DNA of 4,481 bases from a virus (Duplodnaviria > Heunggongvirae > Uroviricota > Caudoviricetes): the IMG/VR virus record IMGVR_UViG_2675903289_000016; one strand, 5' to 3'. Numbering within the stretch: the first letter of the stretch is position 1; each line of letters starts with the position of its first letter. The position numbers and the translations under genes were made by a program. The notes under the pieces were generated by a model. The model saw only the letters and a program-made list of their open reading frames with translations, was not told where the DNA came from and searched no databases. This document shows, piece after piece, positions 1-4,481 of the stretch.

Positions 1-11
1 CTACTGTCCAT
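1..11 (-). CDS. Probable start of a further minus-strand gene running off the window (only M-D-S visible)
   Basis: On the minus strand, AAGGAG (plus 19-24) lies 7 nt upstream of the ATG at 11..9, in a different frame from ORF 1-198. Same initiation-region pattern as gam (AATAAGGAGAAAGATAATGG vs AATAAGGAAAAACAAAATGG). Confidence 0.3.
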
Positions 12-198
12 TATCTTTCTCCTTATTCAGTCTTCTGCGGCATTCGGCACAGTCATCAGGGCTTTCAAATGTATCCGGCTCGCGATTATGAGCCAGATAT
101 AACCACCGCCCACATATACTGATATTTTCACCTGTTTTAAAAAAATGATGCTTCTTAGCCATCAATGGCCGCGCCCATCCAGCGGGTAGACTATTCAT
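1..198 (-). CDS. Small Cys/His-containing hypothetical protein (65 aa)
   Basis: ATG at 196-198 with a GGAGGA RBS 8 nt upstream, lying inside the 3' end of the preceding gene; stop TAG at 1-3. Has C29, C50, C53 and H17/H18/H37 (HH…C…H…CxxC-like spacing). Confidence 0.5.
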   Translation of the reverse strand: MNSLPAGWARPLMAKKHHFFKTGENISICGRWLYLAHNREPDTFESPDDCAECRRRLNKEKDNGQ

Positions 199-565
199 TA
201 GCTTTATCCTCCATGCTGGACAGAATCATATGTATTAATGTCGGGCGTGGAGATATACGCATTTCATTAAGCGTCTGAAGGGCAGCAACAGCAGCCATTT
301 TATCGGTGCCTCTGGCAATTTCTGCAAGAGAATGCACAATCCATAACGGACTTAACGCTACGGCTGAATCCAGAATCATGTCATCCATAATAATTTCTGG
401 CACATCCCGTTTGTCACATTCTTTATCCATAAAAGAAACGATTTTTTCCGCATCTTCCGGTTTCATACCTCCGGCGATAAGAATTTTACGATATTCATAA
501 GACGTTCTTAATTCAATGCTCATATTCATCTCCTGTAACTCTGACAAGGACGTGATTTTTCTCAT
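191..565 (-). CDS. Hypothetical protein (124 aa; alternative start gives 110 aa)
   Basis: ATG at 563-565 is coupled to the upstream stop. An internal ATG at 521-523 has a stronger AGGAG RBS 6 nt upstream. Stop TAG at 191-193. About 40% GC by hand count. No HTH or catalytic motif recognised. Confidence 0.5.
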   Translation of the reverse strand: MRKITSLSELQEMNMSIELRTSYEYRKILIAGGMKPEDAEKIVSFMDKECDKRDVPEIIMDDMILDSAVALSPLWIVHSLAEIARGTDKMAAVAALQTLNEMRISPRPTLIHMILSSMEDKANE

Positions 566-756
566 TTACGCCTNTTACGCCTCCCGGAAATACGAATGTA
601 TATACCGATGAGAAAATCCATAATAAACAGGAAGAGCGACATCCTGATAAAGAACCAAATGTCAGGCATAATGGACAGGTTTCCTGTAATCGCAAATATA
701 AAACCAGTCCCCCACACTGGAACGATAATTGCGAAAAATACAAGTCTCTTTATCAT
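562..756 (-). CDS. Small membrane protein (64 aa), two predicted transmembrane helices and a polybasic C-terminal tail
   Basis: ATG at 754-756 with a GGGAG RBS. Two hydrophobic stretches (LVFFAIIVPVWGTGFIFAI and IWFFIRMSLFLFIMDFLIGIYI) followed by GRR(K/N)RRK. The ambiguous base at 574 falls in this tail. Stop TGA at 562-564 overlaps the next ATG. Confidence 0.5.
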   Translation of the reverse strand: MIKRLVFFAIIVPVWGTGFIFAITGNLSIMPDIWFFIRMSLFLFIMDFLIGIYIRISGRRXRRK

Positions 757-1304
757 GGCGTTAACTCCCGTAATACAGCGTCCTCGGCGGTCCGTCGACG
801 GTAATAAACAGCGTGAGCAGAATGTTCAGATATGCCAAACTTTTCGCCAATTTCCCGGAATGACAGACGGCGAGGGTAATCGGAATCCCGTAGTGCACGT
901 ATAAGACGAACATCCTCATCAGATATACGTGTGCCGGGGCGTAACTCACCGCACTTTGTTAATCCGGCACCAATCATTCCTGCGCGGCACCTGACAGAGT
1001 CTTTATTACGTCCGAGATAATCCCCCATTTGCTGGCAGGTCATTGTCCGGGCATTTTTTCGGATAAATTTATCTTCATCAGGTGTAAATCGCGGTCGTTT
1101 ATATTTCAGCAACTCCGGGTATGTACTGCGCAATACGCCAGTCCGGTTATATACGGCCCAGACACTTCTTTTTATTCTGGCGGCAATATCCTTAACCGGG
1201 GTGGAGGAATAAAGCGCAATCAGCAGCGCATCTTCTTCAGGTGTCCACGGGCGGACATGAGCAGGTGCACGACCTTTTCGCCCCATGGGTTGTAATTTCA
1301 TCAT
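753..1304 (-). CDS. Putative DNA-binding regulator (183 aa) with three HTH-like repeats; C-terminal repeat resembles the Mor/C activator HTH
   Basis: Starts ATG ATG (1302-1304, 1299-1301) after GGGGGTGA. Three repeats begin WTPEEDALLIALY, FTPDEDKFIRKNA and ISDEDVRLIRALR. The last continues RRLSFREIGEKFGISEHSAHAVYYRRR, which matches the Mu Mor pattern LIRDLR…SELTTRYGVTFNTVYKAIRRMRR as I recall it. Stop TGA at 753-755 overlaps the next ATG. Confidence 0.55.
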   Translation of the reverse strand: MMKLQPMGRKGRAPAHVRPWTPEEDALLIALYSSTPVKDIAARIKRSVWAVYNRTGVLRSTYPELLKYKRPRFTPDEDKFIRKNARTMTCQQMGDYLGRNKDSVRCRAGMIGAGLTKCGELRPGTRISDEDVRLIRALRDSDYPRRLSFREIGEKFGISEHSAHAVYYRRRTAEDAVLRELTP

Positions 1305-1307
1305 GCA

Positions 1308-1823
1308 TCACCCCCTGACTCGCTTTTCAGCAGCATAAAACTCATCAGACAGAATTTCGGTCATTTTCTGTTTTGCGGGTTTTACGCCACACTCAAGGTA
1401 AATCACATCGTCAACGCAGAACCACTTCACAGGGCCAAACAGGATTGCCGAGAAATCAATGCCCAGCCAGAACAACAGGGCATCGGTCCTAGCATACGTG
1501 ACGGGCGAATATTCACGCCACAGACTGTTAAGTTCGTCAGAGGCAGCGCGCAGGGCTTTGGGAATACGAGATGTGCGCGGCGTGCAGCTCCAGCCATTCG
1601 ACGCAGTTGGTTTTCGCCATAAGTCGCGATGAAAAGGATATTTGTCATCCGTAAAACGCAGCCCCTTAAAACAAAAACCACTGATACTGAATTCAAATAC
1701 CGACCGGCACTCAACATTCAGCACGGCCTCAAGGCGTTTTGCCTCATCCTTAACTTTCTGGCAGTCCTGCTGGTATTTTTGCCACGCAGCCAGCGCGGAA
1801 GGGTTTGATGTTTTAAAGAACAT
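1308..1823 (-). CDS. Hypothetical protein (171 aa); sits where GemA lies relative to Mor in Mu, but the sequence is not recognised
   Basis: ATG at 1821-1823 with a strong GGAGGTG RBS 5 nt upstream; stop TGA at 1308-1310, 3 nt before the next start. About 55% GC. Confidence 0.6.
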   Translation of the reverse strand: MFFKTSNPSALAAWQKYQQDCQKVKDEAKRLEAVLNVECRSVFEFSISGFCFKGLRFTDDKYPFHRDLWRKPTASNGWSCTPRTSRIPKALRAASDELNSLWREYSPVTYARTDALLFWLGIDFSAILFGPVKWFCVDDVIYLECGVKPAKQKMTEILSDEFYAAEKRVRG

Positions 1824-2102
1824 TACGCCACCTCCGCAGATATCCCGGCAGGCGCTGCTGTCCGGTCAACAATCAGGTAGCGCAGAACATGTTCAGTGAT
1901 ATTCCAGCCGCTTAAACCGCAGATAATGACGCCCAGGCGTATGTCGATATACGCCATCACAAACTGGGGCACGCCTTCTTTCATGGCCTGCTCATCAACT
2001 TCAGCCACCACATAAACGGTTTCACAGGTCAGAACGCCCTGAGCAAATTCCCACGCCATCGACGGAATATCATGCCCCTCAATCCATGGCAGGGATTTTC
2101 TG
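1823..2102 (-). CDS. 3' part of a hypothetical protein whose 5' end lies inside the N gap
   Basis: The called ORF starts at the ATG at 2057-2059, but the same frame stays open upstream (…EKSLPWIEGHDIPS-MAWEF…) right up to the N boundary at 2102. Stop TAA at 1823-1825 overlaps the next gene's ATG (TAATG). Confidence 0.5.
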
Positions 2103-2594: not shown

Positions 2595-2600
2595 GCGGTG

Positions 2601-3131
2601 TTATTTATTCAGTCCGGCGTCCTGTTCAAAAGGCTCGACATAAAAACTTTCAGCGCCTTTATTCACCTTGATACCGGCAATGCCTTTCACAGCATCCGGC
2701 TCCGCCAGGACGGCTTCCTTGTTCACTTCCTCTTTCGTGCGGATGAAACGCTCAAGCCCCATACGGCGCAGCATTTCAATCACACCTTCCACATCACGGC
2801 TGACGCTGCATGATGGCGTTCCCAGCCGCCATGACACCGTTCCGGTGGTCAGATTGGCTGTTTTGGTTTTGCCGCCGTTCGTCAGCTCATCACGGTTGGT
2901 TTTGCACCAGTCCTGAATCCCTTTAAAAAGCACTTTGATTTGCTTTTTAAGATTTTCAATCTGCGGCGTATAACGGGCGGTGATTTCTGCCACTTCGTCA
3001 TTCATCGCCGTTTCCAGGCGCAGCGCCTCTCGCTGAATATCTCCCAGGGTGCGGATATCACGGCTGACTTCTTCCCGGGTCTGCGGTGCCGCCTCGGCTG
3101 CGGCCTTTAATTTTGTAATGCGTTTAGCCAT
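2601..3131 (-). CDS. gam: Mu-type Gam, host-nuclease inhibitor / dsDNA-end-binding protein (176 aa)
   Basis: ATG at 3129-3131 with an AAGGA RBS about 10 nt upstream; stop TAA at 2601-2603. The translation carries the motifs I recall from phage Mu Gam: N-terminal MAK, NRDELTNGGKxKTANLxTGxVSWR, RFxRTKxExNKEAxLxEP and PFEQxAG near the C-terminus, at the same length (Mu Gam is about 174 aa). Recalled, not searched. Confidence 0.85.
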   Translation of the reverse strand: MAKRITKLKAAAEAAPQTREEVSRDIRTLGDIQREALRLETAMNDEVAEITARYTPQIENLKKQIKVLFKGIQDWCKTNRDELTNGGKTKTANLTTGTVSWRLGTPSCSVSRDVEGVIEMLRRMGLERFIRTKEEVNKEAVLAEPDAVKGIAGIKVNKGAESFYVEPFEQDAGLNK

Positions 3132-3142
3132 TTTGTTTTTCC

Positions 3143-3436
3143 TTATTGCAGTGTGCCTGATGCTTTATGCACGCGGTGGCGTTTAATGATGGCATCCGCT
3201 CCAAAAGACTGTGCAGATGCCTGAAATTCCGCTGAGAGAAACTGAATAATTGCAGGACTGTGATACTGGAGAATACTTGCATAAACGTCACAGAGTGACG
3301 TCGGCCTGTTATCCGTATCACGTTCTGTTTTCACATCCACTCCAATCTTTTCATGCACTTCAACACAGTCATTGCCTGCCAACTTTTCGTCATGCGAAAC
3401 ATGATTAAATTCAAAAATAACGCGTACTTTGCTCAT
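3143..3436 (-). CDS. Small hypothetical protein (97 aa from the MSKV start), paralog B of a tandem pair
   Basis: The longest ORF reaches 3463, but the ATG at 3434-3436 has a GGGG(T) RBS, lies 4 nt after the upstream stop, and gives MSKVRVIFEF, matching paralog A. Stop TAA at 3143-3145. About 44% GC. Confidence 0.6.
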   Translation of the reverse strand: MSKVRVIFEFNHVSHDEKLAGNDCVEVHEKIGVDVKTERDTDNRPTSLCDVYASILQYHSPAIIQFLSAEFQASAQSFGADAIIKRHRVHKASGTLQ

Positions 3437-3440
3437 GGAA

Positions 3441-3713
3441 TTACCCCTGTTGATTAAATTCATTACCGTTAATAACCCCGGAAGCCATGCCTCTGTCTTT
3501 CATGAATGCACTGGCTTTCATTGCCACAAACTCTGCGAAGTTTCTGCTTTCTGCCAGCATAACCACCCCAAAAATCATGGCGGGTCCATTATCTTTCTTC
3601 TTTATTCCGGTTGAACGTATATCCAGACTTACCCCTCTGTGCGTGCTGCCATCAGAGTTTTTGCAGATAACATCTTCCTTGTATTCGAAAATAATGCGTA
3701 CGACTTTACTCAT
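3441..3713 (-). CDS. Small hypothetical protein (90 aa), paralog A of a tandem pair
   Basis: ATG at 3711-3713 preceded by GAGGA; stop TAA at 3441-3443. N-terminus MSKVVRIIFEY and C-terminal AEFVAMKASAF segment match the downstream gene. About 43% GC. Confidence 0.6.
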   Translation of the reverse strand: MSKVVRIIFEYKEDVICKNSDGSTHRGVSLDIRSTGIKKKDNGPAMIFGVVMLAESRNFAEFVAMKASAFMKDRGMASGVINGNEFNQQG

Positions 3714-3991
3714 CCTCTGGTCCTCGTTCTGTTTGGATAACTGACCCGGCGTCTAACCTCACGGCAGAACCGAATCATGGCATTAAAGGCTTCTTCCTCC
3801 GTCACCGCTTCCGGTATCCCCGGAACCAGTAACTGCTCCTGTTCATCACGTCCATGACGCGCCATAACCTCAATCACATGCCGTACCGTGGCAGGCTTTC
3901 CGGCAACTATCGGCAATGCACCTTCCGGCAGGACGTAACCAAACTCAATAAGACCACTCGACCACGCCCATGCAATGAGATTTTTTTTCAC
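3710..3991 (-). CDS. Hypothetical protein (93 aa), GTG start
   Basis: Minus-strand ORF whose first codon is GTG (plus 3989-3991 = cac), preceded by GGGAGGTG. Codons 2-4 form an A8 run (plus T8 at 3981-3988). Stop TGA at 3710-3712 overlaps the next start (ATGA). About 53% GC. Confidence 0.5.
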   Translation of the reverse strand: MKKNLIAWAWSSGLIEFGYVLPEGALPIVAGKPATVRHVIEVMARHGRDEQEQLLVPGIPEAVTEEEAFNAMIRFCREVRRRVSYPNRTRTRG

Positions 3992-3992
3992 C

Positions 3993-4247
3993 TCACACCT
4001 CCCAGTAAACCGTGCAGCCGCTGATGCGGGTGGCCTTCACACGGCGGCGCAGGCCGTTGGTCTGTATGGTGATTTCAATTTCACCGGTTCCCTGCACGTT
4101 GCCTACCGGCGGCGTGGTTTTCAGTGCAAAACGTTGCGGATAGCGCTTACTGCGTTCCAGTACCGCACCGGCAAGTTCGGTCAGACGGCGCGCGCTGTTC
4201 AGGGAGTCGAATAAATTCATTTTGTTACCGCAGGATTGCATATTCAT
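3993..4247 (-). CDS. Hypothetical protein (about 84 aa; the longest ORF reaches 4259)
   Basis: Minus-strand ORF with stop TGA at 3993-3995. A GAGGTG Shine-Dalgarno sits inside the first codons of the longest ORF, so the start is more likely the ATG at 4245-4247 (or 4239-4241) than 4257-4259. About 55% GC. Confidence 0.5.
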   Translation of the reverse strand: MNMQSCGNKMNLFDSLNSARRLTELAGAVLERSKRYPQRFALKTTPPVGNVQGTGEIEITIQTNGLRRRVKATRISGCTVYWEV

Positions 4248-4259
4248 ATAACACCTCAT

Positions 4260-4481
4260 TTAGCTGACTTGTTTCGCACCAACAGAACGGCATATTCCGC
4301 TGTAAACTTCTGTCGCACCTTCGCGATCAAGTCCGGCAGATATCACCATTCGTGTGCGGTCATTAAATTCAAAAAGTAAATCGCCACATTCTTTATTTTC
4401 GGCCAGTGAAATCACCTTCACGTTATCGAAATTAACCAGGTAAAAGCGTCCGTAAATATCAGGAATATTAAATACCGCCAT
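4260..4481 (-). CDS. Hypothetical small protein (73 aa as drawn); ATG lies exactly at the window edge so the true start may be further upstream
   Basis: Minus-strand ORF from ATG at 4479-4481 to TAA at 4260-4262. AT-rich (about 42% GC by hand count) compared with its downstream neighbour. Contains the exact 14-mer attaaattcaaaaa (4362-4375), also present at 3404-3417, encoding FEFN in both genes. Confidence 0.5.
   Translation of the reverse strand: MAVFNIPDIYGRFYLVNFDNVKVISLAENKECGDLLFEFNDRTRMVISAGLDREGATEVYSGICRSVGAKQVS

Follow-up and report, generated by a model that had tools for sequence, protein, structure and literature searches.

The window, i.e., the whole 4,481-nucleotide stretch of phage DNA that was analysed, is filled by a string of small genes. 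All of its substantial open reading frames (ORFs) lie on the minus strand, head to tail, with overlaps or gaps of a few bases. This agrees with the earlier note on this DNA, which had read every gene as running the same way. The GC content varies between 40 and 54%, with no break in composition. At 2601-3131 lies gam, whose predicted product is a host-nuclease inhibitor of the Mu Gam family that would bind double-stranded DNA ends, an assignment made from PF07352, phrog_491 and the alignment with Mu Gam. The gene runs on the minus strand from an ATG at 3131 to a TAA at 2601 and encodes 176 aa. A Shine-Dalgarno sequence, AAGGA, is found 9 nt 5' of this ATG. It shares bases with the stop codon of the ORF before it, as is typical of translationally coupled genes in phage operons.

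The minus-strand ORFs that precede gam begin with one of 73 aa (4260-4481; phrog_3375, E 1.2e-46), whose start codon, ATG, forms the very end of the window. It is the first early ORF after B, lying directly downstream of the MuB-like gene in loci of identical sequence. It is followed by a Kil-like small protein (3993-4259; phrog_2679 'Kil protein for bacterial septation inhibition', E 7.8e-46). The longest form of this ORF has 88 aa and the annotated form 84 aa from 4247; PF26843 (Kil_protein) is assigned to the identical product, and similarity to Mu Kil is weak (33% over 39 aa). The order after B is thus the 73-aa ORF and then the Kil-like gene, whereas in Mu kil directly follows B. A 93-aa early protein comes next (3710-3991; phrog_1518, E 3.8e-43), which both PHROG 1518 and the Sakai record (ECs_4949) label 'host nuclease inhibitor'. 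It was considered as a second Gam-like protein and rejected, having no Gam similarity, no Pfam match and no relative in the PDB, and the label seems unsupported. The remaining ORFs before gam encode a 90-aa early protein (3441-3713; phrog_4107, E 1.7e-54; no Pfam match) and, just upstream of gam, an early protein at 3143-3463 (phrog_2230, E 2.5e-38), of 106 aa in its longest form and annotated as 97 aa from 3436.

Beyond the gam stop codon the window is interrupted by a run of 492 N (2103-2594), an assembly gap or mask that corresponds to 393 bases in the sequence-identical loci. It hides a 145-nt spacer between gam and gp11 together with the N-terminal ~60% of gp11. The same position is the site of an indel of ~490 bp among relatives, some of which carry an extra 180-aa ORF here, so the assembly may have broken down at this point in a genome that holds two variants of the prophage. 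The spacer, as seen in the sequence-identical locus L001 (22348-22492), contains a GC-rich hairpin, GGCGC...GCGCC, with no T-tract and no Rfam match, and scans for promoters and terminators did not rise above chance there. The visible C-terminal part of the Mu gp11 homologue occupies 1823-2102 on the minus strand (PF25754 Gp11_C, E 3.1e-34; 64% identity to Mu gp11), and the full-length protein in the identical loci has 177 aa (L001 21814-22347). It is followed by a 171-aa homologue of Mu gp12 (1308-1823, minus strand; phrog_2314), which is 55% identical to Mu gp12 over 168 aa and whose identical product is assigned to PF26885 (Phage_Mu_Gp12).

The next gene (753-1304, minus strand) encodes a 183-aa putative DNA-binding protein of the SANT/Myb-like helix-turn-helix (HTH) type. 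Its Pfam matches, to Myb/SANT and AsnC-type HTH families, are all sub-threshold; it matches phrog_323 'transcriptional regulator, D5-like' at E 2.5e-53, and it appears to contain two or three HTH-like segments. This is probably the protein that the earlier note had described as a Mor-like HTH protein downstream of gam, a description that does not hold. No ORF in the window matched PF08765 (Mor) in the Pfam scan, the 183-aa protein aligned with Mu Mor at E 0.30 and with the lineage's own Mor at E 3.5, and the true Mor lies outside the window. The 183-aa gene sits at the place of Mu gp13-gp15 and has no counterpart in Mu.

Three further minus-strand ORFs complete the window. The small hydrophobic ORF at 562-756, for which no family match was found, encodes 61 aa in the identical loci and is lengthened here by a 9-base insertion, NTTACGCCT, at 574-582. 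The insertion consists of a single N at 574 followed by a repeat of the preceding 8 bases, adds three codons (one of them X) and looks like a scaffold-join artefact. An early protein of 124 aa (annotated as 110 aa) is encoded at 191-565 (phrog_1988, E 1.9e-43) and one of 65 aa at 1-198 (phrog_2358, E 4.7e-34), after which a 98-aa ORF, GemA and Mor follow outside the window. Promoter-like and terminator-like sites in the region occurred at chance level in our scan and no Rfam match was found in the early region, which would fit a single long transcript of the early genes like that of Mu.

The identification of gam rests on several concordant comparisons. A search of the product against Pfam, a check proposed in the earlier note, gave a match to PF07352 (Phage_Mu_Gam) far beyond chance (E 5.1e-42), covering the whole profile (1-149/149) at 143.8 bits, where the curated cut-off of the family is 28.3 bits. 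The match to PHROG 491 'Mu Gam-like end protection' reached E 5e-70. In BLASTP the product was 57% identical to Mu Gam (Mu_10) over 175 columns with 2 gapped positions (E 4e-72), and the alignment is colinear from end to end, the two proteins having 176 and 174 aa, respectively. Three motifs that the earlier note had named as those of phage Mu Gam are present at aligned positions in both proteins, as NRDELTNGGKTKTANLTTGTVSWR, RFIRTKEEVNKEAVLAEP and PFEQDAG in the window and as NRDELTNGGKVKTANLVTGDVSWR, RFIRTKQEINKEAILLEP and PFEQEAG in Mu. What they have in common is NRDELTNGGK.KTANL.TG.VSWR, RFIRTK.E.NKEA.L.EP and PFEQ.AG. In an alignment of 53 diverse homologues the three motifs are invariant or nearly so and hold most of the 24 invariant residues. 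PF07352 was recovered in all 275 of the database homologues found, and every named one is described as a Gam host-nuclease inhibitor. Judged on these alignments, the product of 2601-3131 is a genuine relative of Mu Gam, as the earlier note had proposed. The gene has been annotated as Gam in Sp18-type prophages for many years.

The gene is also under purifying selection. Among 16 gam alleles synonymous codon changes far outnumber non-synonymous ones, by about 6:1 (e.g., 21:3), none contains an internal stop and none is disrupted. On the structural side, the sequence of the window Gam matched PDB entry 2p2u ('Host-nuclease inhibitor protein Gam, putative'), a distant relative, at E 5.6e-12 over residues 28-168. 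This entry was not retrieved by fold searches with a predicted monomer model of the protein. Neither the PDB sequence search nor the fold searches with the monomer model gave a match to Ku, and no NCBIfam model matched any window protein.

The genomic context was taken from loci that carry the exact Gam sequence, which represent at least four chromosomal contexts. Apart from the 9-base insertion, the resolved parts of the window (1-2102 and 2595-4481) show no mismatch to any of these loci. Their gene order starts with a divergent CI-type repressor, a Ner-like HTH protein, a transposase with a Mu-transposase C domain (PF09299, E 1.4e-17) and a MuB-like AAA+ ATPase. It continues with the genes of the window, i.e., the 73-aa ORF, the Kil-like gene, the ORFs of 93, 90 and 97 aa, gam, gp11, gp12, the 183-aa HTH gene and the ORFs of 61, 110-124 and 65 aa, and ends with the 98-aa ORF, GemA, Mor and a lysozyme. 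Mu-type packaging and head genes (Gp27, portal_Mu, Mu F) come next in three of the four identical contexts. The stop codon of the MuB-like gene lies 3 bases beyond window position 4481 in all identical loci, and a sharp boundary between prophage and host, the left end, is reached 4,503 bp beyond 4481. On the other side, GemA is found 283-792 bp and Mor 863-1,285 bp beyond window position 1. In L001 coordinates, Mor spans 18716-19138, B 24376-25308 and the transposase 25385-27427.

This gene context supports the reading, advanced in the earlier note, of a Mu-like prophage early region with the transposase genes and the left end beyond 4481, both of which are seen in the sequence-identical loci. 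What the earlier note said on the place of gam in Mu likewise agrees with the annotated map of Mu, in which gam lies between B/kil and gemA-mor. The window is a piece of a long unidirectional early operon, the counterpart of the semi-essential early region of Mu between B and gemA-mor.

A megablast search found the window in 232 of 5,426 complete Escherichia coli genomes, at ~274 places in all and in most cases with 90-95% identity. An exact 45-mer search for the source contig of the window gave no match in genome_contigs and 26 IMG/VR contigs, of which none has the N-run or agrees exactly with the window from end to end. Among the complete genomes strain DLI.5a matched best (99.8%); here the prophage is inserted in bglJ, measures about 19.2-19.4 kb (L001 9504-28876), lacks the head genes and most tail genes and has a frameshifted invertase. 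Although this copy is deleted, its early region does not differ from the one in intact copies, and 86-nt inverted repeats at 14640-14725 and 15887-15972 mark an invertible tail-fibre segment. Two complete copies (L011 and L015) carry Mor/C-type activators, a Mu portal, Mu F, a myovirus tail, an invertible fibre segment and com/mom. Copies of the Mu-like element were repeatedly encountered inside other prophages, e.g., in a lambdoid tape-measure gene and in Stx1a/Stx2c-converting phages (L003, L007/L013, GenBank LC727881 and LC727895), and some E. coli genomes carry the element in up to four places.

In the best explanation of these data, 2601-3131 represents gam in a Mu-like transposable prophage of the Sp18 type from E. 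coli, and the gene product, by homology to Mu Gam, would act as a Ku-like dimer capping double-stranded DNA ends and blocking RecBCD. We put the probability of this reading at roughly 0.93. One rival reading would see gam as a relic within an immobile, defective remnant of a prophage, retained as neutral cargo or for some benefit to the host. The state of the DLI.5a prophage, only ~19 kb long with most head and tail genes missing and a frameshifted invertase, speaks for such a remnant, as does the origin of the window sequence in a gapped draft assembly. However, base for base the same DNA continues into intact Gp27, portal_Mu and Mu F genes in three other contexts, gam is under purifying selection with 0 of 16 alleles disrupted, and the prophage family occupies many different sites, which implies recent transposition. 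We therefore regard a remnant as unlikely, and even so the identity of the gene would be unchanged, its product still being a Gam.

The setting and the mode of action can be questioned as well. A Gam-family gene might belong to a non-transposable prophage, e.g., a lambdoid one, so that there would be no Mu-like context, an outcome that the earlier note had named as one that would overturn its reading. The identical locus L003 does lie among lambdoid genes (P22 Cro-like, YdaT, DUF977), and further copies are found inside Stx phages and in the lambdoid tape-measure gene. Yet such copies are discrete Mu-like insertions that bring c, ner, A and B genes of their own and share the sharp TGTAACC... 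boundary, and the GenBank records describe a 'region of the inserted Bacteriophage Mu-like phage'. A non-transposable context is refuted for all sequence-identical loci, every one of which has the transposase and B, and we consider this alternative highly improbable. A shared name raises the other question, namely whether the window protein could act like lambda Gam, a DNA mimic that binds RecBCD directly without capping ends, as the annotation 'host-nuclease inhibitor Gam' is given to both proteins and either one neutralises RecBCD (PMC3809393). Lambda Gam and Mu Gam are, however, unrelated and differ in their mode of action (PMC3809393, PMC12407980), the window protein is 57% identical to Mu Gam, and in the Pfam scan it matched PF07352 only, with no other family reaching E 0.01. 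A lambda-type action has next to no chance of being correct.

For the preferred reading, a gam of a Mu-like transposable prophage, the mechanism is drawn from homology to Mu Gam. Mu Gam binds double-stranded DNA ends specifically, blocks RecBCD and, when expressed, phenocopies recB (PMC3809393). Both PMC3809393 and PMC12407980 cite d'Adda di Fagagna et al. (2003) for the description of Mu Gam as an orthologue of Ku whose dimer binds DNA ends; unlike Ku, Gam itself performs no repair reactions (PMC3809393). GamMu dimers block RecBCD loading and license the Gabija defence, which is also licensed by a Pseudomonas Gam homologue with 61% identity (PMC12407980). The Ku-like end-capping mechanism of Mu Gam is presumably the same for the window Gam. 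By this analogy, a dimer of the window Gam would bind double-stranded DNA ends non-specifically, and linear phage DNA would thereby be shielded from exonucleases, RecBCD among them. The DNA protected in this way may be the genome that enters at infection, to which host flanks are attached, as well as any ends that arise in transposition. Blocked repair of double-strand breaks in the host would be a side effect, and in hosts that possess Gabija the capping of ends may license that defence. Gam-type end-capping proteins are of interest as they disable RecBCD, a central nuclease of repair and anti-phage defence. The window gene is a routine, already annotated example of them. Its identification explains the unidirectional string of small ORFs and shows annotators where the transposition genes and the ends are to be found.

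Among known prophages, Sp18 of E. coli O157:H7 Sakai, annotated 'prophage Sp18, Mu-like phage', is a complete reference copy of 38.8 kb. Its ECs_4952, a 'host-nuclease inhibitor protein', is identical to the window Gam at 173 of 176 residues, and gam has the same neighbours and occupies the same place among the early genes of the operon. The DLI.5a protein, annotated in RefSeq as 'host-nuclease inhibitor Gam family protein' (e.g., WP_112384460.1), is identical to the window Gam. O157 copies share ~93-94% DNA identity with the window. Sp18 and most E. coli copies differ from the window lineage in having an extra 180-aa ORF (phrog_2260, no Pfam match) between gam and gp11, e.g., at L015 6766-7308 and L011 11131-11673; the window lineage lacks it and has the 145-nt spacer in its place. 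Sp18 has been predicted to be intact, with Mu-like behaviour and no circular form detected (PMC2669165), and its integration site differs between strains (PMC2669165, PMC7430833). A 2026 sRNA paper that names Sp18 proved unrelated to the region of the window.

The relationship to Mu itself is one of shared order with limited shared sequence. The gam (gp10, Mu_10)-gp11-gp12 block of Mu is syntenic with the window at 57, 64 and 55% identity, whereas six of the twelve window ORFs have no detectable counterpart in Mu. The 73-aa ORF matches Mu once, weakly and at a locus that is not equivalent, and the small ORFs in the B-gam and gp12-gemA intervals of the window lineage show no relationship to those that Mu has there. 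Megablast found no match to the window in the Mu, D108 and SfMu records. The Gams of Pseudomonas D3112/B3-like siphophages (JBD30 gp13, JBD93, JBD5), at 55-58% identity, are as close to the window Gam as that of Mu is, although these phages have another host and another virion type and share no DNA with the window. Genetic evidence identifies the JBD30 homologue as an end-binding RecBCD antagonist (PMC12407980).

Similar differences are seen outside the window. The lineage B protein is 48% identical to MuB and the lineage transposase 24% identical to MuA (E 2e-9), the latter being closer to the transposase of Mannheimia phage 3927AP2 (44%) and to those of D3112/B3-like Pseudomonas phages (~30%). 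The transposition and early module is mosaic in this respect, with B, Gam, gp11 and gp12 at 48-64% identity to their Mu counterparts and the transposase at 24% to MuA. By sequence comparison the element is Mu-like in architecture and is not a Muvirus.

The ends of the prophage, which lie outside the window, were located from insertions in bglJ, phnM, sorM, hsdR, a fimbrial usher gene, the lambdoid tape-measure gene and elsewhere, all with breakpoints TGTAACC.../...GCGCTATA. The element starts with 5'-TGTAACCAGGTGAATCATTTGATACC... and ends with ...TCGGTATCAAAAAAATCGCCGCGCTATA-3', and the flanks of different insertions diverge at exactly these bases. The end positions examined were 9504 and 28876 in L001, 4782 and 44079 in L011, and 471 and 39225 in L015, together with those of L007/L013, L009/L014 and L010/L012. 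The right terminus was ...GCGCTATA-3', i.e., TA and not CA, in all copies examined, and the left terminus was TG, with TA in two copies. The earlier note had suggested that the sequence beyond 4481 be inspected for transposase A and AAA+ B genes and Mu-type terminal repeats. The transposase, the MuB-like AAA+ gene and inward-facing end repeats are indeed present, but the TA right terminus and a 4-bp target duplication depart from what Mu would lead one to expect.

A duplication of 4 bp was found in all six insertions checked, as GTAC in bglJ, TCCT in phnM, CCCG in the tape-measure gene, CTAA in the fimbrial usher gene, GGTA in hsdR and TAAA in sorM of Sakai. Parsing the six junctions by hand for a 5-bp or 6-bp duplication gave no fit, because the T(G/A) and TA beside the 4-mers are invariant bases of the element. 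When the empty phnM and bglJ sites were rebuilt with one copy of the 4-mer, they matched the uninterrupted genes of thousands of genomes at 156/156 positions. Mu, with TG...CA termini and a 5-bp duplication, differs from the Sp18-type arrangement of TG (or TA)...TA and 4 bp. According to a 2021 paper, TG-CA ends are a conserved trait of every Mu and B3-like phage reported up to then, with a target duplication of 5 bp in Mu and 6 bp in B3 (PMC8705779). The searchable literature, whose coverage is incomplete, yielded no mention of Sp18-type phages duplicating 4 bp of their target. Sp18-type prophages could represent a mechanistically distinct variant of the transposable phages, with a divergent transposase, a TA 3' terminus (always on the right, sometimes on the left) and a 4-bp stagger, a proposal that we make tentatively and with rather more doubt than conviction, and of which the searchable literature gave no account. 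If confirmed experimentally, the TA termini and 4-bp duplication would widen the known range of Mu-type transpososome geometry. This incidental observation, made on a very common E. coli prophage family, is the only part of the present analysis with research value.

Within the ends, inward-facing repeats of the form TTTGATAC(C/T) lie 19, 114 and 166 nt from the left end and 19, 41 and 76 nt from the right end. With three repeats per end they resemble the L1-L3/R1-R3 layout of Mu, and they would be the binding sites of the transposase. The 7-mer TTTGATAC occurs 11 times in 38,755 bp.
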